Assembly (NCBI GenBank): GCA_905235455.1
Contig: CAJOLL010000006.1
Location: 31,835 to 55,834, forward strand
Source of the DNA: an uncultured Clostridia bacterium
GTDB taxonomy: Bacteria > Bacillota > Clostridia > Saccharofermentanales > Saccharofermentanaceae
Direction of reading: 5' to 3'
DNA: 24,000 bases
Position 1 is the first letter of the stretch, and each line of letters begins with the position of its first letter. A program made the translations under genes and the position numbers. Below, in pieces: positions 108-18,186 of the stretch. The notes under the pieces were generated by a model. The model ran no database searches, was not told where the DNA came from, and saw nothing but the letters and a program-made list of their open reading frames with translations.

Positions 108-653
108 TTATTGTTCTATTATATATTTTTGTATTACCTTATCGCTCCAAATATGAGCTTCGATATACCTTTCCGGTCCAAACTTTCCATCATCATTCCA
201 ATCCTGCGGCATGCCGTATTTCTTTATTATCTCCAGGATCTCATCATACATATAGACCTTTTTCCTGTACTCCTTGCCATCATTCACTCTATCACTGAAT
301 GTAGGCATGGAGTCACCATAAGTAAATGAAACTGTCCGCAGGTCAAATTCCTCTACAGGGATCTTTATGTATCTACACTCTTCATACCAGGTTGATAACC
401 ACGGACTGAATCCCAAAACCATATAGTGAGGCGAATCTATCTCCATGATCCCGCCCTTTTGGGCAAATGCTTCTCGAAGCATCCGCTCGCAATTATGTCG
501 ATATTGCACGTATTTATCATGTCTGGCTGCGCATTGAGAATTGGGGCGTTCTATCTTTATCCTCTCAATGATCTCTCTGGCTTCATCCTGAGGTATAGAA
601 GTCAGACTTCTGAATGGCCCTGTCCTGGCATCATAAAAATGATATAAATACAT
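108..653 (-). CDS. hypothetical protein, no family recognised
   Basis: 181-aa ORF with non-repetitive, globular-looking composition. It lies outside the element on the host side of attR. I recognise no catalytic motif. Confidence 0.6.
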   Translation of the reverse strand: MYLYHFYDARTGPFRSLTSIPQDEAREIIERIKIERPNSQCAARHDKYVQYRHNCERMLREAFAQKGGIMEIDSPHYMVLGFSPWLSTWYEECRYIKIPVEEFDLRTVSFTYGDSMPTFSDRVNDGKEYRKKVYMYDEILEIIKKYGMPQDWNDDGKFGPERYIEAHIWSDKVIQKYIIEQ

Positions 654-1049: not shown

Positions 1050-2750
1050 TCAATCAACACTATCTTTTATTTGCATCATTTTTATCAACATCATTACCAA
1101 TCCATCTATGAACCCAGCTTTCTGTTCAATCAATATTTCGTTAATATCGTTTTTCTCCGTAGTAGCTACACAATTTGCTATGATGTGCTTCACGCGTTTT
1201 TCTGTACTCTCGCTCCACTCTGAACCTTGAGATAAAAACACATTTCTCATTCTATCGGACCACTTGGCATTTCCTTTAAACTCTTTGCACTTAAGATTAA
1301 TATTATACTCATCTTCCAGAGAATCAGCATAAACATCTGCTCTAATACAGTCTTCAAATTCAGATTCTGTAGATCCATTACAAATGGTCATCTTCACCTG
1401 AGAATCCTTTACGAGACCAATCTTTCGTGCTTTATCTATAGCTTCCTTTCCAGCTTTATCATTATCTAGTAATACGACAAAGCTACATAAGCTAGCCTTC
1501 AAATCCATTGCATCATGCGTTAAGTTCCCCACACCTGCCAACGGCTTAATAACTAATTGATTTGATAACAACACACTCCTCAATGCACTGCTTTTCATCG
1601 AAAGAATTCTTTCCAACGCAATCTTATCATTTTCACCCTCGACCAAAAGAACAAACCTGGAATGTTGAAGATTGTCGGATGGGATAACTCCGAGTATATT
1701 CCGTATTTCTTCAATACTTTTAGCAGGTCTAGCAGTACCAGAATCCACAATAATATTTGAGTTCAGTTTATTTTGCCGAACAAACAGAGGATTGTGTGTA
1801 GTTATAATTATTTGGTTGTGCTCAGATAATGAATTTATAACATCAATCAAATTGTGTATTGCGCCAGAATGAAGATGTGATTCCGGTTCTTCGATAGCAA
1901 TTATCGATGCTTTTTTTGTACTAATCCTATCCTTAAGAACGGCTAGAGTAACTAGACTTTTAATCCCATCACCTTTATTTGTAATACTAGTCAGCTCCCC
2001 ATCATCAATTAATACATCAAAGCCGTTATACAAGCGCCAATTCCTTGAGTTTTCACGAAGTTTACGGATACATATCTTTTTTAGATTAGGCAGAAAAACG
2101 TGTAATGGACCAAACAATTGTGCAGAAATATTATCCAGTATTTCTTGCTCTAGACTATCTACTTTGTCCATAGCCTCTACATATTCCTGATTATTCTGCA
2201 ACGATCGCAATTCTCCTGATATTGCCCATCTTAACGCGTCCAAAGCCATCTCTTCAGTTCGAACCGCTTGAATGTAATTGAAAGAAATATTCGTCGAGAT
2301 GAAGTGAGTAACCTGTTTTGAATTCCTGTTATAAGACGATGAACCTTTTTTAGGAACTTCAATTTTGGCCTTGTTATCACGTCCAAACTTAACAGTTATT
2401 GGAATATCTTCATTTCCTCTAATTTTGGTTAAGTCATGAAACTCAGTTAATTCATCTCCTTCCAATCTAAAATGCAGTTTAAAAATCGACTCAAGACCAT
2501 TCTTCCTATTCTGCAGAGATATTGGGAAATCACGATTCCAATTATATAAATACTCGCCCTCCAAATCTCTAAAATGATTATAATCCTGTGAATGCTGTAA
2601 AATAGCGCGCATGGCAATATTTAAAGCGGTAAGAAGATTGGATTTTCCTTCATTGTTTTTACCGACAAGAACTGTCATATCTTGAAGATTAATCTTGTGG
2701 GCTTTCGTTATACTTCTAAAGTTTGTTACTGAAAATTCCACTAATTTCAT
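1050..2750 (-). CDS. OLD-family nuclease (ABC/AAA_15-type ATPase plus C-terminal Toprim), stand-alone class-1-like
   Basis: The ORF-track start at 2756 is a GTG. The ATG two codons in (2750) lies 7 nt after GGAGGA and is preferred. ATPase motifs: Walker A GKNNEGKS, signature-like NKGDGIKS, Walker B IIAIEEPESHLH, TTHNP. Toprim motifs: LLVEGENDK (Glu) and VVLLDNDKAG (DxD). No UvrD-like partner is adjacent. Confidence 0.85.
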   Translation of the reverse strand: MKLVEFSVTNFRSITKAHKINLQDMTVLVGKNNEGKSNLLTALNIAMRAILQHSQDYNHFRDLEGEYLYNWNRDFPISLQNRKNGLESIFKLHFRLEGDELTEFHDLTKIRGNEDIPITVKFGRDNKAKIEVPKKGSSSYNRNSKQVTHFISTNISFNYIQAVRTEEMALDALRWAISGELRSLQNNQEYVEAMDKVDSLEQEILDNISAQLFGPLHVFLPNLKKICIRKLRENSRNWRLYNGFDVLIDDGELTSITNKGDGIKSLVTLAVLKDRISTKKASIIAIEEPESHLHSGAIHNLIDVINSLSEHNQIIITTHNPLFVRQNKLNSNIIVDSGTARPAKSIEEIRNILGVIPSDNLQHSRFVLLVEGENDKIALERILSMKSSALRSVLLSNQLVIKPLAGVGNLTHDAMDLKASLCSFVVLLDNDKAGKEAIDKARKIGLVKDSQVKMTICNGSTESEFEDCIRADVYADSLEDEYNINLKCKEFKGNAKWSDRMRNVFLSQGSEWSESTEKRVKHIIANCVATTEKNDINEILIEQKAGFIDGLVMMLIKMMQIKDSVD

Positions 2751-2763
2751 ATTCACATCCTCC

Positions 2764-5700: not shown

Positions 5701-6054
5701 AAAGAAAATCTGAAGATTCTCAAGACAAAGTATCGCTTGATCCTCAGTAATCTTCTTTCCGGAATGCGCAGCATTATTACCCATCTTACGAATGAAGTCC
5801 ATTCGCTTCATGAGATCATCATCAATAATGTCGCGAAACTCTTCCGTACTCATGAGGCTTATCAAGTTGTCCTGGTACGGCATCTGCAGTGAACTATCTA
5901 CGGAATACATCCACTTGATCGCAAACTCCATTGCTCTCCGGCAGTTGATAATACAGGAAGTAGGATCAATATACAGAATCTTCTCAGCCGCAATTGCCAC
6001 ATCAGAGAATGTGTTAAATTTCGGCTCATTTTTCAAATAATCGAAGTTGGTCAT
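2764..6054 (-). CDS. hsdR: Type I restriction enzyme R subunit (HsdR)
   Basis: 1096 aa. DUF4145-like N-terminus (AIAAEKILYIDPTSCIINCRRAMEFAIKWMY). PD-(D/E)xK nuclease motif (FADYVLFD...AVIEAKR). SF2 motifs: I MATGSGKT, II VICDEAH, III GLTATP, VI QMIGRGTR. C-terminal tail resembling the EcoEI R C-terminal domain. GGGAGG lies 7 nt before the ATG. Confidence 0.95.
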   Translation of the reverse strand: MTNFDYLKNEPKFNTFSDVAIAAEKILYIDPTSCIINCRRAMEFAIKWMYSVDSSLQMPYQDNLISLMSTEEFRDIIDDDLMKRMDFIRKMGNNAAHSGKKITEDQAILCLENLQIFFDFVCYCYADHYEEHPFDKSLLVKDEDAKFETEFPDVEIKELIAENSALRKELTSRREEQLETYVPKPLDLSEYKTRKIYIDAMLIDAGWKEGSDWINELELPGMPNKSEVGFADYVLFDNAHKPLAVIEAKRTCVDVSKGRQQAKLYADILEKQYKRRPCIFLTNGFDTRIIDGQYPERKVACIYSKADLEKMFNLRRMRTSLAHVNVDKNIAGRYYQEAAIKAVCDSFDKKNRRKALLVMATGSGKTRTVIELCHVLLDAGWVKNILFLADRTSLVTQAKRAFVNNYSSLSVTNLCEEKDNYNAHCVFSTYQTMMNCIDTVKVENQKLFTSGHFDLVICDEAHRSIYNKYRDIFTYFDAPLVGLTATPKDDIDKNTYEIFDLEQGVPTYGYELAQAVNDGYLVDFLSVETKLKFIEQGIVYDELSEEDKAIYEDTFEMEDGELPEAISSSALNSWIFNEDTIRQVLHTVMKDGIKIDYGQKLGKTIIFAKNHDHAEKILEIFNKDYPHLNGFAQVIDNRINYAQTLIDEFSDPNKLPQIAISVDMMDTGIDVPEVLNLVFFKKVMSYAKFWQMIGRGTRLCPGLIDGEDKSKFYIFDFCGNFEFFRMSKGKPTANMIALQGAIFNLQFEITYKLQDLAYQEERFIAYRKALVEAMTGKVQELPRENFAVRQHLKYVDLYSAEANYQTLTYADTLLVREELAPLILPNDDEASAARFDALMYGIELAYLAGKKYGRARSDLYKRVSGIASVANIPEIKVQSELIDKILHTDYITDCGVIEFEEIRENLRDLMKYIPKKHLRYDTNFDDDILDVSWNESELDNDDLKNYKAKAEYYIREHQDNEVIKKLKSNIPLSHDDIEVLEQVLWSDLGTKEEYEQEYGTKPLGELVREIVGLDMNAAKAAFSEYLESNDLDSRQIYFVNQIVEYIVHNGMMKDLSVLQESPFTDQGSVVEIFTDLNVWMGIRKVIDGINDNARVA

Positions 6055-6080: not shown

Positions 6081-6605
6081 TCATTTGAATAATTCCGGTT
6101 CTTCGTTATATAGCTCCAATAACCAAGGTTGCGGAACATAGGTCAATATCATTGCGTTGTTCCACCCTAGTGTAAACACCTGTTCAGGCATGTGTAAAAA
6201 CAAGTTATTAACCAAATAAATTGTATCTCCAGATGTCTTATCTAACGATATCGTTTTATCCTCGCTCCGCAACACCTGCAAAACTATTGCTTTTTGTCTA
6301 GGACTTAATGTCAGAAGCTTCTTCTTCAAGTTTTCTCGAATACGTTTATTTCTTCGTCTTGTAGAAATATCTGAAATAACAGAAAAGATGACTATGGTAG
6401 CTATCAATGCGATGCTCAGCAAAAAGATGATCCCTATAATTCGATTCCATAAGACTGGAAGTTCATTCAGATTCATCTTAGCCAATACCGACTCAGGAAG
6501 AAAAATAAGCAAGCCCGACAGTATCGCAACTGCTGCCAAGGCAGGCGTTATCTTCTTAAAATTATCAAAAGTCTTTTCGACTAAATTGTCAAAAGAAACA
6601 CTCAT
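6081..6605 (-). CDS. small 2-TM membrane protein, SieB (superinfection exclusion B)-like, embedded between hsdS and hsdR
   Basis: The track ORF is 6081..6626, but the internal ATG at 6605 (MSVSFDN...) is preceded by GGGAGGAGAG and the ATG at 6626 has no SD. Two hydrophobic helices (ITPALAAVAILSGLLIFLP and IIGIIFLLSIALIATIVIFSVI) are followed by the basic stretch TRRRNKRIRENLKKK and a roughly 90-aa soluble C-terminal domain. The LIFLPESVLAKMNL motif and the overall layout match my memory of the SieB family (PF14163). Not searched. Confidence 0.5.
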   Translation of the reverse strand: MSVSFDNLVEKTFDNFKKITPALAAVAILSGLLIFLPESVLAKMNLNELPVLWNRIIGIIFLLSIALIATIVIFSVISDISTRRRNKRIRENLKKKLLTLSPRQKAIVLQVLRSEDKTISLDKTSGDTIYLVNNLFLHMPEQVFTLGWNNAMILTYVPQPWLLELYNEEPELFK

Positions 6606-6618
6606 TTTTCTCTCCTCC

Positions 6619-7809
6619 CTATCCAAAATACTCTTGCATCAAACTATCAAAAAGTAATTGAGTTTTTTCTAATGCTTTCTGCACCTCAACTTTTGATTTG
6701 TCGACTTGTTCACAAAATGAGTCAAACTCTATCTGAAGGTTCATAGGCGGCACAAAAGCCTCCAAACTATTAATCATATTTGTATACAGGCCCGCCTGCG
6801 CAGCTGCGTGCGAACAATGATCAATGTCATTCTGAATCGATTCGCTTCTCAATACGTTTATAAGGAAATTACTTGTAACCATTTCCTTATTAGGTTTTAT
6901 CAAAGCGACACTACGGGCCATACTGAATTCACCCATCGTTTCTGGAACTAATGTGCATTTTCCAATTGTTGCCCCTACGCATACAAGGAGCAAATCATCC
7001 TTTTCTGGATTACATCTTTTATATATCTTCTCATGGATCTCTTGAGGAACAAAAGATGTTTCAGATAAATTGATTTCACCATCTTTTGTAATATTACGTG
7101 CCATGAAATAAAGATATCCTTCACCTTCATCAACTCTTGGAACTGTGCCGTGCTCTCCATCAGTAATTTTTGTACTGACATCCTTGAACGTACATTTCTT
7201 CCACCCATGCTCATTTGTTTTTATATCACCAAAGAGCTCGACAAATCGGGCTTTGATAAGTTCATCCAGCATCTCAAGTTCATGTTGTCTTTTTTTAATA
7301 ATCCCTTCCAGTTTAGAAATTCGTTCAATTATCTCTTTTTGCTGATCCAATGCCGGTAGAGATATTTCCATCTTATTGGCATTCTGAATTGTAAAGGTTC
7401 CTACCGTTGTTCCGCTGGAATTTTTGGATATAAAATCCTTTACTTCCTTTGAATCAAATGCCTTTACAAGATATTCCGGCAAGATCCTTTCTGGTGCTTT
7501 TTGTCTAAACCATAGGATATTTCCATCTTTGAAGTAAAACTTGTCTTCTGGTTTTACAATATAACAAACTCCCAACGTGCCAACGCCAGTTACCATTACG
7601 TCACCTGGCTGAGGTTTACCATATTTCTCTGTGTACTCTTCGTAAAGTTCTTCATCTATGAATAGCTCATTATCGACATAACCATCTTCCGATAATCGCG
7701 CAATTTCCCTCGCCCTATAAAAAGGTATTCCCTCTTCTCTCCATTCAGATTGAAAAACTCTTTTACTAGAGCCTATATCATAAAGATTGCTTAGTTTTTC
7801 TTTTGCCAT
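6619..7809 (-). CDS. hsdS: Type I R-M specificity subunit (HsdS)
   Basis: 396 aa. Two variable target-recognition halves are separated by conserved helical spacers: a central LDQQKEIIERISKLEGIIKKRQHELEMLDELIKARFVELFG and a C-terminal QKALEKTQLLFDSLMQEYF. Located within the hsdM...hsdR block. Confidence 0.9.
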   Translation of the reverse strand: MAKEKLSNLYDIGSSKRVFQSEWREEGIPFYRAREIARLSEDGYVDNELFIDEELYEEYTEKYGKPQPGDVMVTGVGTLGVCYIVKPEDKFYFKDGNILWFRQKAPERILPEYLVKAFDSKEVKDFISKNSSGTTVGTFTIQNANKMEISLPALDQQKEIIERISKLEGIIKKRQHELEMLDELIKARFVELFGDIKTNEHGWKKCTFKDVSTKITDGEHGTVPRVDEGEGYLYFMARNITKDGEINLSETSFVPQEIHEKIYKRCNPEKDDLLLVCVGATIGKCTLVPETMGEFSMARSVALIKPNKEMVTSNFLINVLRSESIQNDIDHCSHAAAQAGLYTNMINSLEAFVPPMNLQIEFDSFCEQVDKSKVEVQKALEKTQLLFDSLMQEYFG

Positions 7810-7825
7810 ATCATCCCTACAAATC

Positions 7826-8860
7826 TCAATTTATTGATTCATCATCATTCAACATCCATATCCTCTTAAGAGGAATGTCTGCCTGCATATCTGGACTTAA
7901 CTTTTCGTAATTAGCAAAGAGTTCGTTAATTACATCATTTGAATCCCATAATCTTATTCTGAAGAACTGATTTCCACGCTCTTTTTCTACGCTCGACTTA
8001 AAACCGCTCCAAGAAACAAGCAATCCATATTCCGCTCCGACTTTATTCATAACGCCACCCAACTGATCAAGTATAGAGCGTTCTATTGGAGCGTCTTGCG
8101 TCTTAACCTGCACACATATTTTCGGGGAGCCAAAACCCATCGTACCACCGGAAGCAAGTAGATCTTTTCCGCCATCAGCCCCCTGTTTGCTGTGATAAAC
8201 GGTAAAACCCTTTGCTGCTAACAGCTCACAAATTAATTCCTCCATTCTGTATCCCTTAAATTTATGAAGGATATACTTAGAGATTGCATCTCTAGCAGCT
8301 AATTCAATATCTGTTGTCGTTTCAAAGTCACTATCAGTACCGTCAGGGAAAACCGCATCAGCTGCAGTTGAAACTTTCCAATTATTCTTTTCCATTGCCT
8401 TAAGGCGCTTCTCTGCATCGTTTCTGGTAATCTGACACACAGTCATGAATGCACCAAATGAATACAAAATATCCTGATCGAAATTACTCCTCGGAATATC
8501 AGTCGCAAACCATTTAACCTCAATATAATGCTTATACGGACTTACTGCTTTTTCATCATATGTATAAGATCCGATAACTTTAGCAAAATGTATAGTACTC
8601 GATCTTTTGCTCGGCAAAACGATCCAGTCCTCCTCCTGGATTTTATTGGCAAATGGATATATTTGAGATGCCCAATTCTTAATCGTATTCGGCTTTTCAG
8701 ACGAATATATTTCGTTTAACTTGGATAAAAGCTTCTCTCTGTTCTTATACTTAGTTAAATCAATATCAAGCTCTCCCCATGTAAGATAGATTTTCTTGTC
8801 ATTGAGGAATTTATCTTCATACTGCCCTTTACTTCCTGCACGCACTAACCAGATACTCAT
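7826..8860 (-). CDS. Mrr-family (Type IV-like) restriction endonuclease with a non-canonical N-terminal domain
   Basis: The C-terminal half has an Mrr_cat-type PD-(D/E)xK core (GADGGKDLLAS...PKICVQVKTQ...LLVSWSGF). The N-terminal roughly 160 aa (MSIWLVRAGSKGQYEDKFL...YIEVKWF...FGAFMTVCQI) is not the winged-helix N-terminus I remember from E. coli Mrr. GGGAG lies 9 nt before the ATG. Confidence 0.75.
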   Translation of the reverse strand: MSIWLVRAGSKGQYEDKFLNDKKIYLTWGELDIDLTKYKNREKLLSKLNEIYSSEKPNTIKNWASQIYPFANKIQEEDWIVLPSKRSSTIHFAKVIGSYTYDEKAVSPYKHYIEVKWFATDIPRSNFDQDILYSFGAFMTVCQITRNDAEKRLKAMEKNNWKVSTAADAVFPDGTDSDFETTTDIELAARDAISKYILHKFKGYRMEELICELLAAKGFTVYHSKQGADGGKDLLASGGTMGFGSPKICVQVKTQDAPIERSILDQLGGVMNKVGAEYGLLVSWSGFKSSVEKERGNQFFRIRLWDSNDVINELFANYEKLSPDMQADIPLKRIWMLNDDESIN

Positions 8861-8876
8861 ACATTTTGACTCCCTT

Positions 8877-10373
8877 CTATTTTAATAGCTTTTCAAGTTC
8901 ATCCATCTCTACCGCTATCTGTTTTTCGATATCTCTGATACTCGCCATGATCTCCGATGTCGGCGGATATACTACAGGAACATACTCGACTTCCTTATAC
9001 TTATTAATCGAGAGATCATAGTCATTATCTGCAATTTCCTTCTTTGATACCATGAACGATTTTTCTGTGCGCTTTCTGTCCTTCTCGGCATCAAGATTCT
9101 TGAATCGGTTTATGATATCAGGAATATCATTGTCCTTGATCTCTGCGCGCTTATCATCAAGGCTGAATCCGTCGGCAGTCATATCGTAGAACCATACATT
9201 ATCCGTTCCGCCGTGGCCTGTCTTAGTGAAGATAAGTATACCGGTAGACACTCCGGCATACGGCTTAAATACACCGGACGGCATAGAGATAACGGCTTCT
9301 AGCCTTTGGTTCTCAATAATCTCTTTTCGTATAGCCTTATGAGCATTGGATGATCCAAACAGCACTCCGTCCGGTACGATACATGCACATCTTCCGCCGA
9401 CTTTAAGCATTCTTACAAACAGAGCCAGGAAAAGTAATTCAGTCTTCTTTGTCTTGCACATTTTCTGCAGGTCCGTTGACACCGTATCAGCATCGAGATT
9501 CCCCTTAAATGGAGGATTTGCAAGGATAAGCGAATACATGTCTTTATCCGGATTCTGATCAGATAGACTGTCTCTGTATTCTATGAAAGGATTATCTACA
9601 CCGTGCGTCATCATGTTCATGGCACCGATACGAAGCATAGTTCTGTCCATATCGTATCCGTGGAACATATCGTTCATGAAGTGATTTCTGTTTTGTTTAT
9701 CGAGAAGAACTTCTTTCTTATACTTTTCTCTAAGATAGTCGCCACTCGTGACAAGGAATCCGGATGTTCCGCATGCCGGGTCACAGATAGAATCTGTCGG
9801 TTTCGGATCCATCATCTCGACCATCATTCGTATGATGTGTCGTGGCGTTCTAAACTGACCATTTACACCTGACTGTGAGATCTTGGAAAGAAGATATTCA
9901 TATACGTCACCACGTATATCCGTCTGATGAAGTTCCTCCATCATGGAGTATATCTCATCCATAGCATCTACGATCTTGGAGAGCATCAATGGTGTATTTA
10001 CCTTGAAAATAGCATCATCCATGTACTTGCTATATGCAGAATTCTTATCTCCGTGAAGATTCTTTATAAACGGGAATACCCATTCCTGCACAACAGAATA
10101 CATGCGCTGTGCCGGAAAATCGTGGAACGTCGACCATTTGAGTTGATTCCCGTCGACCTTACGATCTCCAATCTCAACTTCATCTGCAAAGATACTCTTG
10201 TAGGGAAGTCCAAGCATTGCTGCTTCCTTTGCACGAAGATTATCTGTATCATCGAGATCCTTAATGAACATTAGATATGTCATCTGTTCAACGACATCAA
10301 GAGGATTGGTGATTCCGCCATTCCAGAATATCTCCCACAAACTATCGATCTTATTACCCAGTTCTCCGGTCAT
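8877..10373 (-). CDS. hsdM: Type I R-M N6-adenine DNA methyltransferase subunit (HsdM)
   Basis: 498 aa. HsdM_N-like N-terminus, AdoMet motif DPACGTSGFL, catalytic NPPF (LILANPPFKG). AGGAG lies 8 nt before the ATG. Confidence 0.95.
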   Translation of the reverse strand: MTGELGNKIDSLWEIFWNGGITNPLDVVEQMTYLMFIKDLDDTDNLRAKEAAMLGLPYKSIFADEVEIGDRKVDGNQLKWSTFHDFPAQRMYSVVQEWVFPFIKNLHGDKNSAYSKYMDDAIFKVNTPLMLSKIVDAMDEIYSMMEELHQTDIRGDVYEYLLSKISQSGVNGQFRTPRHIIRMMVEMMDPKPTDSICDPACGTSGFLVTSGDYLREKYKKEVLLDKQNRNHFMNDMFHGYDMDRTMLRIGAMNMMTHGVDNPFIEYRDSLSDQNPDKDMYSLILANPPFKGNLDADTVSTDLQKMCKTKKTELLFLALFVRMLKVGGRCACIVPDGVLFGSSNAHKAIRKEIIENQRLEAVISMPSGVFKPYAGVSTGILIFTKTGHGGTDNVWFYDMTADGFSLDDKRAEIKDNDIPDIINRFKNLDAEKDRKRTEKSFMVSKKEIADNDYDLSINKYKEVEYVPVVYPPTSEIMASIRDIEKQIAVEMDELEKLLK

Positions 10374-10385
10374 AATCGAACTCCT

Positions 10386-11444
10386 TTACTCGTTATCTCT
10401 GTTCCAAACATACTTTGTATATCTTCCGCCACCGATCTTTATGATCTTCTCCGCTGCCAACAGGTCTGACAACGTTCTTTCAACGGTTATGCGGCTGATA
10501 TCCGGACACTTCTCCATAATCTGTGATTTTGTTATCTCGCCGTATGTGCTCTTAATGAGCTCTGCGACACGCTCAGGCTTAGACAGGCCACTCTCGATCA
10601 ACGTCTGAACCCTGTCTGAGAAATCACGATATGCCGCAACTACTACACCCAGCATATACTGAACAAAAGGAGCGTAATTGTTATTTCCTTCATGCCAGTC
10701 GATCGAGCTTTCTTGCAGACACTCGTAGTATGAATCCTTGGTCTTCTCTATGAGATGCTCAATACTTATGTACTTTCCGACTATGTATCCGGCTCTGTAT
10801 AACAAGAGTAAAGTTAGGAGACGACTCATCCTTCCGTTACCATCGTTAAACGGGTGTATACACAAAAAATCGAGAATGAACATAGGTATTAAAAGAAGCG
10901 GATCTATCGTCCCTGCTCCCATCGCCTTTGCAAACTCGTCGCAAAGAAGTTCTACCGCTTCCGGAGTCTCCCATGCAGAAACCGGCCTGAAGCGGACAAA
11001 CTTATTACCCTGAGCATCCTCTTCTTCAATGATATTATCCGTTGGCTTATATTTCCCACCGAAATCATGGCCCTCGAACTTATATAAATCTCTATGAAGT
11101 TGCAGGATCATATTGGGCCTTATCGGTATATGATCGTGACTCTCATGAATTGTATTAAGTACATCTCGATAACCGGCAATCTCCCTTTCACTTCTCGTCC
11201 TTGGAGTTGTCTTATCCTTTACTATCGCCTTCAAACGGGCATCCGAAGTATAAATACCTTCTATCTTGTTTGACGCCTCAGTACTCTGTATCTTTGCAAT
11301 CTCAACAAGCTGCGTCAACACATCCGCCTTGGCTTCAATAAAAAGCGACTGCTCACCCTTATACTCATGTATCTGTGAAAGCAGTGCCACAATTTCCGGT
11401 GTCAGTAGCTTTTGCCATTTGTTACTGTAGTCAAATGATCTCAT
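10386..11444 (-). CDS. fic: Fic-family protein (probable AMP-transferase), class II type with N-terminal inhibitory motif and C-terminal wHTH
   Basis: Canonical Fic motif HPFNDGNGRMSRLL. An inhibitory (S/T)xxxE(G/N) motif, SNKIEG, lies near residue 60. The C-terminal region (ITKSQIMEKCPDISRITVERTLSDLL) looks like a winged helix. It is the first gene of the operon. Confidence 0.9.
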   Translation of the reverse strand: MRSFDYSNKWQKLLTPEIVALLSQIHEYKGEQSLFIEAKADVLTQLVEIAKIQSTEASNKIEGIYTSDARLKAIVKDKTTPRTRSEREIAGYRDVLNTIHESHDHIPIRPNMILQLHRDLYKFEGHDFGGKYKPTDNIIEEEDAQGNKFVRFRPVSAWETPEAVELLCDEFAKAMGAGTIDPLLLIPMFILDFLCIHPFNDGNGRMSRLLTLLLLYRAGYIVGKYISIEHLIEKTKDSYYECLQESSIDWHEGNNNYAPFVQYMLGVVVAAYRDFSDRVQTLIESGLSKPERVAELIKSTYGEITKSQIMEKCPDISRITVERTLSDLLAAEKIIKIGGGRYTKYVWNRDNE

Positions 11445-11502: not shown

Positions 11503-11531
11503 ATAATATTATGCAATATACTCATTGTCAA
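11503..11531 (-). promoter_or_regulatory. sigma-A type promoter of the fic-hsdM-mrr-hsdS-sieB-like-hsdR-old operon
   Basis: The reverse strand reads TTGACA (11531..11526), 17 nt, TATTAT (11508..11503), about 50-60 nt upstream of the fic ATG. One copy of a 13-nt direct repeat fills the spacer. Confidence 0.55.
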
Positions 11532-11628: not shown

Positions 11629-12873
11629 TCATCGCTCTACGCCTTTTCTTCTGTGATTTTCCGTTCTCGGCATATTCTTAACGATCTCTTCCTTCTCACG
11701 AAGTGTTGCAAGGAGAGACTTCTTCGCCTCCCTACGGATCGGCTCAAGGTTTTGCTTTTTCATCTCGGGACTTTGTAAGGTCATGATAATCTTTTGTGTG
11801 ATGTTCGACATCGCATTCTTTATCCTCCTAGAGACCGCATCGAGAACCTTCTCCGCAAAGTTCTTTTCTTTGATTGGATAATGCTTTGCCTTGTCTTCCA
11901 GCTTGGCACGGACCTCATTAACCTGGTGAAGATCCGCTTTCATCGTCTCAATCTGAACGGTATTCGTTACTACCTCCACCGCCTTGTCATAGGCTGCTTC
12001 TGCAACTTCATCGACCAAGGTTTCGAGCTCTTCGACCTTAAGTGTCATCTCATCAAGTTGGGTTTGAACCTGAGATAATTCTGCTTCCTTCTGTTCAAGG
12101 ATCTCTTTCTGCTTTTGGATAATATAATCCTGCTTCTCGAGATACTTTCTGGATCCGTATTCCGGTTCCTGATCAAGATGGAGTCCGTGCTTCTCGCAGA
12201 TATCAAATAAGATAACTCTGCAAGTAGCATCGAACGTGACCTTGCGGTTGTTTGTCTTACTCATCTTCTTATCGAGATACGGAAGTTCAAACCCGAGTTC
12301 CTCGAGAGCCTTTTCCTGCTGCGGCATCAATTCTCCGTATTTGTTTTTGCAATCGAACACATGTCGCTCGTGAATGTGAGGAGTTGCTTCGTCCAGATGC
12401 AGAGACCAGTCCAGGATATGAACATATTCACCGAAGCGGCGATCGAATTCTTCATAAAAATCTTCTGCGATCTGTGCAAGCACTTCGGGTGATACCGAGT
12501 CTTCCATCGTTCCGATCTGAAGGATCGTTTCTTCAGGACATGTCCTTCTGTCCTGTCTCAGATCTTCCGTGTCTCGATTTCTTTCCGGATGCCCGGTCTT
12601 CTTATTTCTTTCATGCTGTCCGTCACAATACTCCTGGTAATGATCAGAGTAGTATGCCTCTTCGACCTCTTCAAAAGAGAATCGCACTTTATCTTCTGAT
12701 TCATCATCCATTGGATTGTGATAACCCTGATAGCAGTCCCAGTAGATGTTACCCTTTGCTCGTTCCTGATCAATATGATCAGCCAGTTCAAGATCAAATC
12801 TTCTATCATTATGCTTTGCACTATATGCTCCATCCTTGCCGGTTCGCCCATTATGTCTTGTTAGTTTTGTCAT
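11629..12873 (-). CDS. mob: MobV-family (Mob/Pre, plasmid recombination enzyme) relaxase
   Basis: 414 aa. The HxDE...PHxH signature is present as HLDEATPHIHERHVF. The N-terminal region contains TRHNGR (HxxR-like). The C-terminus is long and coiled-coil-rich. AGGAGG precedes the ATG. Confidence 0.85.
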   Translation of the reverse strand: MTKLTRHNGRTGKDGAYSAKHNDRRFDLELADHIDQERAKGNIYWDCYQGYHNPMDDESEDKVRFSFEEVEEAYYSDHYQEYCDGQHERNKKTGHPERNRDTEDLRQDRRTCPEETILQIGTMEDSVSPEVLAQIAEDFYEEFDRRFGEYVHILDWSLHLDEATPHIHERHVFDCKNKYGELMPQQEKALEELGFELPYLDKKMSKTNNRKVTFDATCRVILFDICEKHGLHLDQEPEYGSRKYLEKQDYIIQKQKEILEQKEAELSQVQTQLDEMTLKVEELETLVDEVAEAAYDKAVEVVTNTVQIETMKADLHQVNEVRAKLEDKAKHYPIKEKNFAEKVLDAVSRRIKNAMSNITQKIIMTLQSPEMKKQNLEPIRREAKKSLLATLREKEEIVKNMPRTENHRRKGVER

Positions 12874-13105: not shown

Positions 13106-13188
13106 GTGACGATGGTGACGGTTGTGACGGTCATTTATAGACCGCACCCCACTCCCAAATCTATCGTCACTATCGACACGACCGTCAC
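13106..13188. repeat. two inverted triplets of 9-bp-phased iterons (GTGACGRT-type)
   Basis: Left arm: GTGACGAT (13106..13113), GTGACGGT (13115..13122), GTGACGGT (13124..13131). Right arm in inverse orientation: ATCGTCAC (13163..13170), ATCGACAC (13172..13179), ACCGTCAC (13181..13188). A 31-bp spacer separates the arms. The last iteron contains the stop codon of the AAA_25 gene. Confidence 0.7.
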
Positions 13189-14237
13189 GCTTTCCATGGA
13201 TCATAGATGACTCTGATCCTCCTTCCATCGTGAGTGCGCATCGATTTATATTCGACGTTGTATTCCTGTGCCAGTCTCCCAAGATTGACATTCAGATACA
13301 TCGTAAGTTTGTTTGGTGCCATATCGAGCCCCAACAACTTGACGAACTCTGATGGGGAGCCTTCCCAGCAAAAGAACTTGTTGGTAAATGCAGCAACCTT
13401 TTCCAGGATCGGATCGGCAGGAGGGGTTATCTCCTCCGCTTCTACCTTAGTTATTTCCCAGATCAGTGTTTCCGCATTTCTGTTCAGATACAGTTTTTGA
13501 TCCATTTGATCCCTTCCGGAGATCTCGAGGATCGCTTCACTTCCTACTCTCTTATCCTTGTGAAGAATAAATGCTCCGTCTGCTGCACCGTGTATGGCAG
13601 TAGTACCGGAAATCATCTCGAAGTGATCATCGGATTGTTGCTTTCTTGTGTGATGTACGATTAATAGACTGATACCGGTAAAGTCGGTAAATGCCTTGAG
13701 CTTACCGATTGTCTCGTAGTCATTTGCATAACTGTACTTATCGTTGCCCTGTTCTTTAACCTTTTGAAGGGTGTCAATGATGATTAGGGTAGTGTCAGGG
13801 TGATCATCCCTAAAAGCTTCCATCTGATTGATCAGATTGCCTTCAAGGGTATCGGACCTTGTAGCCAGATACAGATCATCAGCACACTCCGTCCCAAACA
13901 TACGAAAGAGACGCTCCTGAAGTCTTCTCAGGTCGTCTTCGAGTGCAAGGTATAGTACTGTTCCCTTATGAGCGTGATACCCCCACATATCCGTACCTGT
14001 TGCTACATGATATGCGATCTGAAGCATGAGGAAGCTCTTACCGAGCTTCGGAGCTCCTGCGAAGATATACGTTCCGGGAAGAATCAATCCGTCTATGATC
14101 GGCGGTCTCTTCTGAAAAGATTGATCATACAACTCGGTCATTGATACCGTCTGTAGATTTTTATCATCAATCTGATTGTAAAATGTTGCGATACTGCTTA
14201 TTTCTTCATCGATTACTCTGTCTAATTGGTTTTCCAT
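13185..14237 (-). CDS. AAA_25 / RepA-like RecA-fold ATPase (element replication or processing helper)
   Basis: 350 aa. Walker A GAPKLGKS, followed by YLALEDD and a Walker B-like LIIIDTL, then LLIVHHTRK. This pattern is typical of the AAA_25/RepA-like proteins of plasmids and IMEs. GAGGAGG precedes the ATG. Confidence 0.7.
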   Translation of the reverse strand: MENQLDRVIDEEISSIATFYNQIDDKNLQTVSMTELYDQSFQKRPPIIDGLILPGTYIFAGAPKLGKSFLMLQIAYHVATGTDMWGYHAHKGTVLYLALEDDLRRLQERLFRMFGTECADDLYLATRSDTLEGNLINQMEAFRDDHPDTTLIIIDTLQKVKEQGNDKYSYANDYETIGKLKAFTDFTGISLLIVHHTRKQQSDDHFEMISGTTAIHGAADGAFILHKDKRVGSEAILEISGRDQMDQKLYLNRNAETLIWEITKVEAEEITPPADPILEKVAAFTNKFFCWEGSPSEFVKLLGLDMAPNKLTMYLNVNLGRLAQEYNVEYKSMRTHDGRRIRVIYDPWKA

Positions 14238-14253
14238 TATTACCTCCTCGTGT

Positions 14254-14556
14254 TTATTGATTCATCAGCGCCAGCAATTCTTTGACTGTTGTGTGGAGCT
14301 CGTAAATCGCTTCGTTGTCTCCGTTTTCTGTTCTTCTCATGAGTTCTTCCAGAGCCATCGCCAAACGGTCTGATTTATATCTTCCTGATACGATTTGTAT
14401 CTCTTGCCCGGTAACAGCTGATCGGTAGTACTCACCCTTTGGTATTCCTGCGATTTTGATCCTGGCCTCAACGATTCTTTTCTCCTCATCGCTGAGCCAG
14501 AATGCGATCGTGTTGTGTCTTCTTCTAGCTTCTCTTTTGCATGGCATCTTTATCAC
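14254..14556 (-). CDS. MobC-like ribbon-helix-helix relaxosome accessory protein
   Basis: 100 aa. A basic N-terminus is followed by IAFWLSDEEKRIVEARIKIAGIPKGEYYRSAV, matching the R-x-I-x-F-x-L-T/S-x-x-E...G-x-S-x-x-E-Y-x-R pattern of MobC/RHH mobilisation proteins. Non-ATG (GTG) start in the track. Overlaps the int 3' end by about 30 nt. Confidence 0.6.
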   Translation of the reverse strand: MIKMPCKREARRRHNTIAFWLSDEEKRIVEARIKIAGIPKGEYYRSAVTGQEIQIVSGRYKSDRLAMALEELMRRTENGDNEAIYELHTTVKELLALMNQ

Positions 14557-15616
14557 CTTTACTTACCTTTCCTAATGTATTTGCTATTTTCTGTTGTGCG
14601 TCCATTGACTGATGGCAGTATGTCTCGATGGTGGTAGTTACCCGCCCGTGTCCAAGTCTCCTTGCGATCGCCTGTGCGCTGAACCCGAGCTCTACAAGCA
14701 TCGATGCATGTGAGTGTCGAAGACAGTGGATAGTGATCCTTTTTACTCCGCTGTTCTTGATTCCCCTTTGCATCTCCTTCTCAAAGAAGCTTTTTGTCTT
14801 TTCTGCGAAAAGCCTCGTATCCGGCTTTGCTTTGTAGATATGAGAGATATACTCCTCAATAATTTCCGCCAGATCCTCATGGATAGTGATCACACGGATC
14901 GAGCTTTCTGTCTTGGGAGTTGAAATAATGTCCTTCCCGTTGAGTCTGGTATACGATTCATCTATACGAACCGTCAGATCATCGAGATCGATATCTTCGA
15001 CTTTGAGTGCTAGGAGTTCGCCGATACGCATTCCTGTCCAGAACAGGATCTGAAATGCAACCCATGCTTCATACTTATCACTTACCGCATCGATGAAGGA
15101 TTGAAACTCTTCAAGAGTCCAAAATGGTCTTTCGTCTGCTCGCGACTTTCCCATACTCCCGGCCCTCTTACAGGGATTTGCCCTCAGATCGTAGTAGCTC
15201 ACTGCATAATTAAGGATGGCGGACAACTGATTGTTGATCGTCTTTAGATACGTTGCCTTATACCCCTTCTCCATCATTTCTCCTTGCCACTTACGGATCG
15301 TAGCTGCAGTGATCTGACTGAGGGGCATATTGCCGAAATATGGAAGGAGCTTATCGGTAACGATATACTCCTTGTTCACCATTGTCGTTACCTTAAGACG
15401 TTTTCCCATATCCGCCTTATAGATTTCCCAGAAATCCTTAAAAAGCATACCGGGATCTGCGGCTTGCTGAAGCAGAAAGCGGTTCAACCATTCTTCCGCT
15501 TCCTTCTTCGTCTTAAAGCCTTTTCGAGATGTCTTCCGGATAGTTCCTGTCCAGTCTTTATAACGGAACTGAATGTGCCAGGTACCGTTGGGATCTCTCT
15601 TGGCACTGTTTGCCAT
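14525..15616 (-). CDS. int: tyrosine site-specific integrase (Tn916-like, AP2-type arm-binding N-terminus)
   Basis: 363 aa. N-terminal KRDPNGTWHIQFRYKDWTGTIRKTSRKGFKTKKEAEEWL (AP2-like integrase DNA-binding domain). Catalytic residues in WTGMRIGELLAL (Arg), HCLRHSHAS (His-x-x-Arg) and LGHGRVTTTIETYCH (His...Tyr). Confidence 0.95.
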   Translation of the reverse strand: MANSAKRDPNGTWHIQFRYKDWTGTIRKTSRKGFKTKKEAEEWLNRFLLQQAADPGMLFKDFWEIYKADMGKRLKVTTMVNKEYIVTDKLLPYFGNMPLSQITAATIRKWQGEMMEKGYKATYLKTINNQLSAILNYAVSYYDLRANPCKRAGSMGKSRADERPFWTLEEFQSFIDAVSDKYEAWVAFQILFWTGMRIGELLALKVEDIDLDDLTVRIDESYTRLNGKDIISTPKTESSIRVITIHEDLAEIIEEYISHIYKAKPDTRLFAEKTKSFFEKEMQRGIKNSGVKRITIHCLRHSHASMLVELGFSAQAIARRLGHGRVTTTIETYCHQSMDAQQKIANTLGKVSKGDKDAMQKRS

Positions 15617-15816: not shown

Positions 15817-15873
15817 TTGTTTTCACCTCTTTCCTCTAGATTTGTATCATGCGTATCATTTGATACGCTTGTG

Positions 15874-15902
15874 ATAATAGCGTATCTTTTGATACGTGTC
15901 AA
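15874..15902 (-). promoter_or_regulatory. xis-int promoter
   Basis: The reverse strand reads TTGACA (15902..15897), 17 nt, TATTAT (15879..15874). The 17-nt spacer is exactly operator O2, and O1 lies just downstream of the predicted start. Confidence 0.6.
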
Positions 15903-15911
15903 TAGATAATC

Positions 15912-15940
15912 TTGAAAAATCGTATCTTTTGGTATAGAAT
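15912..15940 (+). promoter_or_regulatory. xre regulator promoter
   Basis: TTGAAA (15912..15917), 17 nt, TAGAAT (15935..15940). Operator O3 overlaps the spacer and the -10. AAGGAG lies 8 nt before the ATG at 15976. Confidence 0.5.
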
Positions 15941-15975
15941 GGCATCAATTGATACGTTTACAAGGAGAATAGCCT

Positions 15976-16527
15976 ATGACTACAGGTGAAAATATCCGCC
16001 GCATCCGCAAGCAGAGAGGTATGACTCTTAAGCAATTAGGAGATGCCGTTGGAGTAAGTGAAGCATATATACGTGCATATGAGGCCGGAAGAAGGAATCC
16101 GAAGCAGCAGTCTTTAGAAGCACTGGCATCTGCGCTTCATGTAAATGTTGAAGTATTAACAGGAGCCGATTTTGATGGCATCAAAGCCATGCACCGTCTC
16201 TTTCAGGTATTCCGTCAATACAGCGGAGAGATGATCACTTATAAGGATGAGGATGGCAACGAACGTGTTGCCGTCGGATTTGGAACGCTTTCTCTTATGT
16301 CATCTTGGTATGAAAAATATGAAGAGTATCAGAATACTATCAAGAAGTGTAAGAAGATAAAGAATGTAACCGAACGTGCTAATGCTTTGCTTGAAGCAGA
16401 GGCCGCATTCGACACATGGATGGATACATATCCTGAATGTGAGACTGATTCCGAGAAGTTGGAGATCCAGAAAAAGCATGATCAGTTCATGGATAAGATG
16501 GGACTTAATCCCAAGGATCCGGAATAA
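15976..16527 (+). CDS. XRE-family HTH transcriptional regulator (element repressor candidate) with a roughly 115-aa C-terminal extension
   Basis: The N-terminal NIRRIRKQRGMTLKQLGDAVGVSEAYIRAYEAGRRNP is a classic HTH_3/cI-like motif. Divergent from xis-int. Confidence 0.9.
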   Translation: MTTGENIRRIRKQRGMTLKQLGDAVGVSEAYIRAYEAGRRNPKQQSLEALASALHVNVEVLTGADFDGIKAMHRLFQVFRQYSGEMITYKDEDGNERVAVGFGTLSLMSSWYEKYEEYQNTIKKCKKIKNVTERANALLEAEAAFDTWMDTYPECETDSEKLEIQKKHDQFMDKMGLNPKDPE

Positions 16528-16644: not shown

Positions 16645-16657
16645 TTATTCAAGCTCG
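16645..16657. repeat. att core copy (attL side, within the guaA 3' end): TTATTCAAGCTCG
   Basis: Exact direct repeat of 912..924. Contains the guaA stop codon (complement of 16645..16647). Confidence 0.75.
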
Positions 16658-18186
16658 ATCGTGGCCGGCGGTTTTCCGGTGCAGTCGTAGAGGACTCGGT
16701 TGATGCCTTTGACTTCGTTGACGATTCGGGAAGAAACTCTTCCGATGAGGCTCCACGGGAGCTCGGCAAATTCTGCCGTCATGAAATCTGTGGTCGTTAC
16801 CGCACGGATGACGCAGGCATAATCGTACGTTCTCTCATCGCCCATGCAGCCGACGGAGCGCATGTTTGTGAGAGCTGCGAAGTACTGGTTCGCATTTCTG
16901 TCGAGACCGGCTTTTGCCATCTCCTGACGGAAGATCGCATCCGCATCCTGTACGAGGCGGACCTTCTCGGCAGTAACTTCGCCGATGATACGGATCGCCA
17001 GACCCGGGCCCGGGAACGGCTGACGGAAGACAAGATTCTCCGGTATACCGAGCTCAAGACCGGCTCTTCTTACTTCATCCTTAAAGAGCAGGCGCAGCGG
17101 CTCGATGATCTCTTTGAAATCGACGCAGTCCGGAAGTCCGCCGACATTGTGGTGGGACTTGATGACGGCGCTTTTACCGAGGCCGGATTCAATAACGTCC
17201 GGATAGATGGTGCCCTGTACAAGGAAGTCGACTGCACCGATCTTCTTAGCTTCTTCTTCAAATACGCGGATGAATTCTTCACCGATGATCTTTCTCTTCT
17301 TCTCCGGTTCTTCGACCCCGGCGAGCTTGCTGTAGAAGCGCTCCTGGGCATTTACGCGGACGAAGTTCAGGTCGTAAGGACCCTCCGGACCGAAGACTGC
17401 TTCTACTTCGTCGCCTTCGTCTTTTCTGAGAAGACCGTGGTCAACGAATACACAGGTAAGCTGCTTGCCGACTGCCTTGGAAAGAAGAACGGCGGCTACG
17501 GAAGAGTCAACACCACCGGACAGGGCACAGAGGACTTTACCGTTTCCGACTTTTTCGCGGATCTCTTTGATCGATGTCTCGACGAAAGAATCCATCTTCC
17601 AGTCACATGCGCATTTACATATAAGCTTTAAGAAGTTCTCGAGCATCTTGTTTCCCTCGACCGTATGGGAAACTTCCGGATGGAACTGTACGCAGTAAAG
17701 GCCCTTCTCCACATTCTGTGCAGCCGCGACCGGACAGGCTTTCGTGGTGGCTGTAACAGTGAATCCCGGAGCCGCTTCCGCGATATAAACTGTGTGGCTC
17801 ATCCAGCAGACTGTCTTATCGGATACATTCTTGAAAAGCGCTGTGTCGGTATCCACATCGACCTCGGTGTGACCATATTCACGGACGGGAGCTGTTGCGA
17901 CTTTACCTCCGAGGAGATAGTTCATGAGCTGGGCACCATAGCAGATTCCAAGGACCGGAATACCGAGCTCGAAGATCTCTTTGCTGCAACGGGGAGCATC
18001 GTCATCTGTGACGTTGCTCGGACCACCGGTGAAGATGATTCCCTTCGGATTCATTTCTTTGATTTTTTCGATCGGTATGTTGTAAGGATGAACTTCGCAG
18101 TAGACGCTTAAGTCGCGGACTCTTCTTGCGATGAGCTGGTTGTACTGGCCTCCGAAATCCAAGATAAGGATCATTTCATTCTGCAT
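16645..18186 (-). CDS. guaA: GMP synthase (glutamine-hydrolysing)
   Basis: 513 aa. GATase domain with GICYGAQL (catalytic Cys). ATP pyrophosphatase P-loop SGGVDSS. Conserved C-terminal dimerisation region ending ...KPPATIELE. Confidence 0.97.

Follow-up and report, generated by a model that had tools for sequence, protein, structure and literature searches.

The superinfection exclusion gene sieB was defined genetically in phage P22 in the early 1970s. In the prr locus, the gene of the anticodon nuclease PrrC lies between hsdS and hsdR, two genes of a Type I restriction-modification (R-M) system. SieB is known from P22 and lambda to halt macromolecular synthesis midway in the lytic cycle, and a 2023 paper still places it among the 'less well understood' exclusion systems (PMC10461980); prrC itself resides within a Type IC locus (PMC12707154). 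Defence is the usual role of genes nested in Type I R-M loci, a principle called 'guilt-by-embedding' (Payne et al., bioRxiv 10.1101/2024.01.29.577857). Here we describe a SieB-family gene wedged between hsdS and hsdR in a stretch of 24,000 nucleotides (the window) from an uncultured Clostridia bacterium, contig CAJOLL010000006.1. We lean towards reading its product as a SieB-type membrane abortive-infection effector that acts independently, is co-transcribed with the R-M genes and travels as swappable cargo of an integrative element. The family assignment is not new, since NCBI already labels the homologues 'superinfection exclusion B family protein'. What appears to be new is the embedding of SieB-family genes in Type I R-M operons, which joins two known themes, SieB exclusion and R-M-embedded abortive-infection (Abi) genes: a whole-word literature search turned up no report that connects SieB with Type I R-M, neither SieB nor PF14163 is named in Payne et al. 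2024 or the supplements searched, and the statement of the original prediction that such genes are uncharacterised thus stands for the literature searched.

Like the PrrC/RloC genes, the window gene is an accessory gene nested in a Type I R-M locus, and it sits where prrC does in the prr locus. The proteins themselves share no sequence or domain similarity: PF14163 (SieB) is the only Pfam match of the window protein, which has two transmembrane (TM) helices and neither an ABC-ATPase nor an anticodon-nuclease domain, and many SieB-family members are not embedded at all. With other embedded defence genes (Payne et al. 2024; TgvAB in Vibrio VPI-2, PDC-S02) the locus shares a variable slot between core R-M genes, and a PDC-S02 gene is present in the very operon that holds sieB; unlike them, SieB has no model in PADLOC v2.0.0, which is a gap in that tool. 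Finally, the hsdS-hsdR slot is filled in sister operons by single-gene Abi proteins of the AbiH and AbiJ types; they are unrelated and soluble, whereas SieB is membrane-anchored.

The gene and the spacer before it are as follows:

6081..6605, minus strand: SieB-family coding sequence, 174 amino acids (aa) plus stop, ATG at 6605; intact
6606..6618, minus strand: hsdS-sieB spacer of 13 nt, which holds the ribosome-binding site (GGAGGAGAG), read directly

From the hsdS stop to the ATG the sequence reads GGAGGAGAGAAAA, with AGGAG 6 nt upstream of ATG 6605. We assign the start to this ATG because it is preceded by GGAGGAGAG and because over 100 homologues have a length of exactly 174 aa and begin with MS(V/I)S. 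The longest open reading frame (ORF; 6081-6626, minus strand, 181 aa) starts from a TTG at 6626; this start, the choice of the ORF finder, overlaps the end of hsdS and was rejected. The hsdS stop codon (6619-6621) leaves a 13-nt gap to sieB, and the sieB stop (6081-6083) lies 26 nt before the hsdR ATG at 6054. Gene length, strong Shine-Dalgarno sequence, start and both spacings are therefore those originally predicted. An ORF of 89 aa on the plus strand (6388-6657) overlaps sieB; the Pfam match and the conserved homologues belong to the minus-strand frame.

Among intact homologues, the proportion of nonsynonymous differences (pN) is 0.10-0.29 and that of synonymous differences (pS) 0.59-0.98. 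Synonymous sites are largely saturated, which is why we give pN and pS instead of the rate ratio dN/dS; pairs with the Butyrivibrio locus L007 were left out, as its internal stop corrupts the codon alignment. These values place intact SieB under purifying selection and, together with the PF14163 match (E 6e-18), show that sieB is not a chance ORF.

The gene product belongs to the SieB (superinfection exclusion B) family, as a bacterial representative. Its PF14163 match, at 65.3 bits, exceeds the gathering score of 26 and spans residues 24-151 of the protein and positions 2-129 of the 147-position model. On the same model lambda SieB, which is the git ORF and is annotated as SieB in NC_001416, reaches 103.5 bits. 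A profile of 96 family sequences aligns by hhalign with lambda SieB over 134 columns (95.4% probability, E 1.8e-8); the aligned part runs from the two TM helices through the linker to halfway along the C-terminal domain. Both the family named in the original prediction and the Pfam hit that it expected were thus confirmed. The same profile reaches P22 SieB at 66% (E 5.6e-5), a link that would be weak by itself. The top fold match in BFVD (E 0.023, probability 1.0) is the 195-aa P22 protein Q38660, which is named 'initial portion of N operon' and may or may not be SieB. Sequence identity of the window protein to the lambda and P22 proteins is about 17-18%.

The family comprises 587 clusters at 50% identity (E <= 0.001); its listed members match over nearly their full length and are mostly 160-205 aa long. 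Searching with a diverse profile gave essentially the same close homologues again. The NCBIfam scan of the protein gave only sub-threshold noise, and a profile search of Protein Data Bank (PDB) sequences gave nothing meaningful, hence no solved family structure by sequence.

The protein divides into five parts:

6552..6605, minus strand: N-terminal cytoplasmic amphipathic segment, residues 1-18 (EKTFDNFKK), from hydrophobic moment and conservation
6483..6551, minus strand: TM helix 1, residues ~19-41, ending in the family-wide LFLP motif, from hydropathy and the AlphaFold2 (AF2) helix 5-35
6369..6446, minus strand: TM helix 2, residues ~54-79, from hydropathy; a single continuous AF2 helix 51-98
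6276..6365, minus strand: basic juxtamembrane helix, residues 81-110, 11 K/R against 1 D/E, includes TRRRNKRIRENLKKK
6084..6305, minus strand: cytoplasmic C-terminal globular domain, residues 101-174, winged-helix-like alpha/beta, from the AF2 model

Two hydrophobic helices, a basic juxtamembrane stretch and a soluble C-terminal domain had been predicted, and hydropathy, charge and the AF2 model all agree with this layout. Kyte-Doolittle means over 19 residues rise to 2.2 in the first TM helix (residues ~19-41) and to 3.1 in the second (~54-79). Residues 81-100 carry a net charge of +5.8 +/- 2.1 across the family; by the positive-inside rule, this basic linker places both termini in the cytoplasm, and the topology check that had been suggested gives a two-TM hairpin with cytoplasmic ends. 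The AF2 model (pLDDT 94.6) consists of helices 5-35 and 51-98, followed by H102-113, E119-122, H126-133, E153-158 and H160-168. The N-terminal segment has a helical hydrophobic moment of 0.55-0.69 (11-residue windows starting at residues 4-11), and its residues E10, K11, F13, K17 and K18 are invariant in close homologues. FLPESVL corresponds to residues 35-41, and P37 is kept in at least 90% of the 96 family members.

A Foldseek search of the PDB with the C-terminal domain and the long helix ranked MarR-type winged helices at the top, none of them significant (E >= 0.1). Across the family the globular domain is about neutral to acidic and shows no evident basic recognition helix. We rejected the label of a DNA-binding winged helix-turn-helix for it, as the Foldseek trend is weak and the domain charge argues otherwise; being neutral to acidic, it is better read as a winged-helix-like protein-binding module. 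This confident fold model, with its hairpin, basic helix and non-basic winged-helix-like domain, can be used for mutant design.

Beyond PF14163, the window protein and the SieB proteins of lambda and P22 share a size class (174 aa against 183-192 aa in the phages), a short N-terminal tail, a first TM helix ending in a conserved proline, a second TM helix, a basic linker and a C-terminal domain that opens with L(S/T)xxQ/E. Their genes differ in setting: that of the window is not prophage-borne, has no promoter of its own and forms part of a Type I R-M operon that an integrase/Mob element carries. The protein that protects P22 from SieB, Esc, is by annotation SieB minus its first 24 residues, esc starting at sieB codon 25. 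The window gene has no Esc-type internal start (its first internal Met is residue 44, with none at residues 2-43); such a start is specific to P22 rather than family-defining. The N-terminal segment of the window protein and the 24 residues absent from Esc are both N-terminal to the first TM helix, and we liken them by position only, without residue alignment.

We compared about 100 related loci in all; a scan of genome contigs gave six loci. Homologues at 63-82% identity with enough flanking DNA were all found in the order Fic-HsdM-..-HsdS-SieB-..-HsdR. They come from Butyrivibrio, Oribacterium, Agathobacter, Christensenellaceae and Lachnospiraceae genomes and from gut metagenomes, and some of these loci are chromosomal and not on a mobile element. 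The more distant lineages, with their identity to the window protein, are these:

P0289, 59%: 27 nt before hsdR
P0125, 49%: order HsdS-SieB-AbiH...HsdR, AbiH directly after SieB
P0297, 44%: immediately 3' of hsdS
P0290, 41%: immediately 3' of hsdS
P0146, 32%: after hsdS
P0313, 30%: 19 nt after an EcoR124_C-type hsdR, a different hsdR type
P0136, 41%: no R-M association
P0309, 33%: Bacteroidaceae island, no R-M association
P0231, 27%: prophage with terminase and portal genes, no R-M association
P0183, 25%: KilA-N and KAP NTPase neighbours, no R-M association
Bacillus and Carnobacterium plasmid relatives, 22-28%: no R-M association

Type I R-M adjacency was therefore seen in 7 of 13 informative lineages (the window clade, P0289, P0125, P0297, P0290, P0146 and P0313). 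These are concentrated among the closer relatives and cover two positions, before and after hsdR, and two HsdR types, EcoEI_R_C and EcoR124_C; the gap from sieB to the neighbouring hsd gene is 9-55 nt. The other six (P0136, P0309, P0231, P0183 and the Bacillus and Carnobacterium plasmids) are not R-M-adjacent. The embedding in an R-M locus described in the original prediction thus recurs in the clade down to about 30% identity. No feature separating embedded from free members was found: the N-terminal FDxFKK motif is also present in the non-embedded P0136. The SieB family is thus not confined to lambdoid prophages, having a clade that is common in gut and rumen Firmicutes, inside Type I operons, and the embedding lends the family independent 'guilt-by-embedding' support as a defence effector.

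A DUF6414-like protein of 250-260 aa, absent from the window, lies upstream of SieB in P0083-type loci across a 159-nt gap (L001, 9089-9841), and upstream of a SieB pseudogene in L060-type loci (L060, 1698-2480), with a 375-aa ORF between them. It may be a SieB partner or another cargo gene.

Seen from the restriction enzyme, the association is one-sided. We scanned metagenome contigs with the window HsdR and obtained 80 loci, their HsdR being 73-98% identical. Only 10 of these hold a SieB-family ORF of any kind, and the sole intact copy is in L035, whose HsdR is 98% identical and which is evidently the same element as in the window. The proposed count of how often the family fills hsdS-hsdR gaps hence has two sides: R-M adjacency in 7 of 13 SieB lineages, and SieB sequence in only 10 of 80 related HsdR loci. 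SieB sequence is entirely missing from roughly 63 of 73 informative loci whose HsdR is closely related, and nearly all the others have a pseudogene. In L037 (1628-2152) the gene carries a nonsense mutation at codon 69; in the L060 group (L060, 3660-4019) both TM helices are deleted and in-frame stops are present; in L066 and L074 it is truncated further. Among the genome loci, L007 (Butyrivibrio sp. NC2002; 8001-8525) has a stop at codon 4 and L012 (5952-6038) retains a remnant of 29 codons. The lesions are independent, and hsdR is full length in every locus with a decayed SieB. Such loss in situ beside an intact hsdR suggests that in some hosts the gene carries a cost or can be spared.

The interval between hsdS and hsdR varies from 86 nt to more than 6 kb across the 80 loci. 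Directly upstream of hsdR, sister loci carry AbiH, AbiJ_NTD4, TIR_2, a NERD nuclease, DUF6414 or several unknowns, and an integrase and extra hsdS copies also occupy the interval. In L001-L005 (6548-9061) it holds an hsdS shufflon, made of a tyrosine recombinase, partial hsdS copies and a DUF3990/DUF3791 pair, which indicates phase-variable specificity. Given such shufflons in sister loci, we regard the interval as recombination-prone.

Most sister operons, then, have no SieB, or other Abi genes in its place, or a decayed copy. This is why we favour swappable defence cargo, and the same one-sided association argues against a role in which the R-M enzyme would depend on SieB as its subunit, tether or regulator. 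We propose that SieB would act alone as a second-line abortive-infection effector, as lambda and P22 SieB do. It would be expressed constitutively along with the R-M genes; once a phage has escaped restriction, the cytoplasmic domain might sense a phage product, more likely protein than DNA. A shift in oligomeric state through the hairpin and the N-terminal segment could then compromise the membrane, so that macromolecular synthesis would halt and the infection abort. The truncation in P22 Esc suggests, by analogy, an oligomeric effector whose N-terminal segment may be needed for activity. The hsdS-hsdR gap would serve as a recombination-prone cargo slot, its benefit being co-expression and co-transfer with a first-line defence, and not physical partnership.

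Several points weigh against this proposal. We infer the abortive phenotype by carrying it over from relatives at about 17-18% identity, and the membrane-damage step and the sensed cue are conjectural. No pore-forming or lipid-active motif was identified in the protein, the PADLOC v2.0.0 scan matched it to no model, and its PHROG matches are weak (E 0.003-0.04). Adjacency in 7 of 13 lineages exceeds what a random passenger of defence islands would show and leaves room for a functional link; that sample is small and biased to relatives of the window protein, and several of its contigs are short.

A functional link of the PrrC type, unlikely in our judgement though deserving of a hearing, would have the Type I enzyme hold SieB inactive or be monitored by it, so that a phage anti-restriction factor (a DNA mimic or an Stp-like peptide), by disabling HsdR, HsdM and HsdS, leads to its release and to membrane killing. 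The hsdS-hsdR position is that of prrC in the prr locus. The SieB clade is mainly R-M-embedded down to about 30% identity, with two HsdR C-terminal types and on either side of hsdR; the gaps of 9-55 nt to the adjoining hsd gene are tight, and the non-basic cytoplasmic domain resembles a protein-binding module. PrrC even displays the same asymmetry: it is found mostly in Type I systems, most of which have no such guardian. Against this, family members work or persist without nearby R-M genes in lambda and P22 prophages, plasmids and islands, the family founders among them, SieB decays beside intact hsdR, and no feature marks the embedded members, FDxFKK being shared with P0136. Nor is the slot position itself informative, since it is also taken by unrelated Abi genes (AbiH, AbiJ-like, TIR, NERD). 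As for the PrrC-like coupling of a membrane Abi protein to the R-M complex that the original prediction had raised, the embedded position between hsdS and hsdR holds; the specific coupling is unsupported, as sister operons devoid of SieB, decay, swaps in the slot and stand-alone relatives favour independently acting cargo. The embedded clade offers a natural test bed for telling a membrane Abi protein wired to R-M from one merely travelling along, and a way into the SieB mechanism.

In a narrower version, to which we give still less credence, this SieB clade would be specialised as a membrane-acting Type I guardian: its winged-helix-like domain would read the state of HsdR, HsdM or HsdS or bind anti-restriction proteins, and convert restriction failure into membrane-mediated abortive infection. 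If that were true, the embedded clade would be the first handle on the SieB trigger.

As an observation in its own right, sieB adjoins the divergently transcribed ral (Type I restriction alleviation) in both lambda (L016, 34087-35033) and P22 (L034, 29349-30336). This may be a second, phage-side link of SieB to Type I R-M, or a coincidental synteny; under the specialised-clade version it would mark an old functional SieB-Type I R-M link.

It seems improbable that sieB hitch-hikes in a recombination-prone gap as a passenger with no part in defence, encoding a small membrane protein whose function is unrelated or absent. Frequent pseudogenes, sister operons missing the gene and the lack of any defence-model match would fit this; strong purifying selection on intact copies, hundreds of intact homologue clusters and homology to experimentally defined exclusion proteins do not, and neither do the Abi or defence genes that alternate in the slot or the defence-like and prophage contexts of the remote members as well. 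Least probable of all is that SieB is an accessory of the restriction enzyme, either tethering the Type I complex to the membrane where DNA enters or acting as a membrane-bound winged-helix protein that regulates hsdR expression or restriction alleviation in a new host: the gene does lie directly upstream of hsdR, on a mobile element that must establish in naive hosts, and its best, non-significant PDB matches are MarR-type winged-helix regulators, but SieB is absent from about 63 of 73 informative related-HsdR loci and nearly always a pseudogene in the rest, hence not needed for R-M function or establishment, every Foldseek match has E >= 0.1, the winged-helix-like domain is neutral to acidic with no evident basic recognition helix, and the family founders are phage exclusion proteins.

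In its wider setting, sieB is one of three accessory genes (with those of the Mrr-cat nuclease and the OLD-like protein) in or appended to a Fic-HsdM-HsdS-HsdR operon. Apart from sieB, the operon and its candidate promoter comprise:

11503..11531, minus strand: candidate operon promoter upstream of fic, TTGACA-17-TATTAT, sigma-70-like, 11/12; consensus match only
10386..11444, minus strand: fic, first operon gene; PF02661, PADLOC SoFic (E 6e-38), C-terminal winged-helix domain
8877..10373, minus strand: hsdM; N6_Mtase and HsdM_N
7826..8860, minus strand: Mrr_cat nuclease, 344 aa, embedded between hsdM and hsdS; PF04471, PADLOC PDC-S02 end to end (E 4.8e-142)
6619..7809, minus strand: hsdS, Type I specificity subunit; PF01420
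2764..6054, minus strand: hsdR; DUF4145 N-terminal domain (HsdR residues 23-114), ResIII/helicase, HSDR_N, EcoEI_R_C
1050..2756, minus strand: OLD/Gabija-like AAA+Toprim protein, last operon gene; AAA_15, AAA_21, Toprim; PADLOC AriA, Old and GajA models

The seven genes run with intergenic gaps of 12, 16, 16, 13, 26 and 7 nt, and no convincing internal terminator was found in the operon. The OLD-like gene begins 7 nt past the hsdR stop and appears co-transcribed. Promoter-like sites in the window do not exceed in total the shuffled expectation. In two SieB-bearing prophage loci, L032 (11047-11688) and L033, a free-standing DUF4145 protein lies about 2.5 kb from the SieB homologue; the SieB-linked HsdR proteins of L018, L019 and L029 have no DUF4145 match, and no correlation of DUF4145 with SieB is established.

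The element further encodes three proteins beyond the operon:

14525-15616: tyrosine integrase
13185-14237: AAA_25 protein
11629-12873: Mob_Pre-like relaxase

A 21-nt direct repeat with an internal palindrome, TGCGTATCATTTGATACGTTT, occurs at 974-994 and 15850-15870 and brackets everything from the integrase through the OLD-like gene. We take these two copies as candidate ends of a ~14.9-kb integrative mobilisable element with the operon as cargo. Extra copies at 15879-15899 and 15939-15959 lie just upstream of a helix-turn-helix (HTH) gene (15976-16527) and might instead serve as operator or arm sites. The guaA gene (16645-18186) follows the HTH gene, about 0.8 kb past the right-hand repeat. 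Just outside the left repeat is an ORF of 181 aa (108-653, minus strand) with no Pfam or NCBIfam match. The window holds no phage structural genes, and its Rfam and tRNA scans were empty.

Finally, the pairing of Fic with hsdM is kept in nearly all SieB-centred and many HsdR-centred sister loci, far more steadily than SieB. Fic may truly belong to this Type I lineage as a fixed partner.

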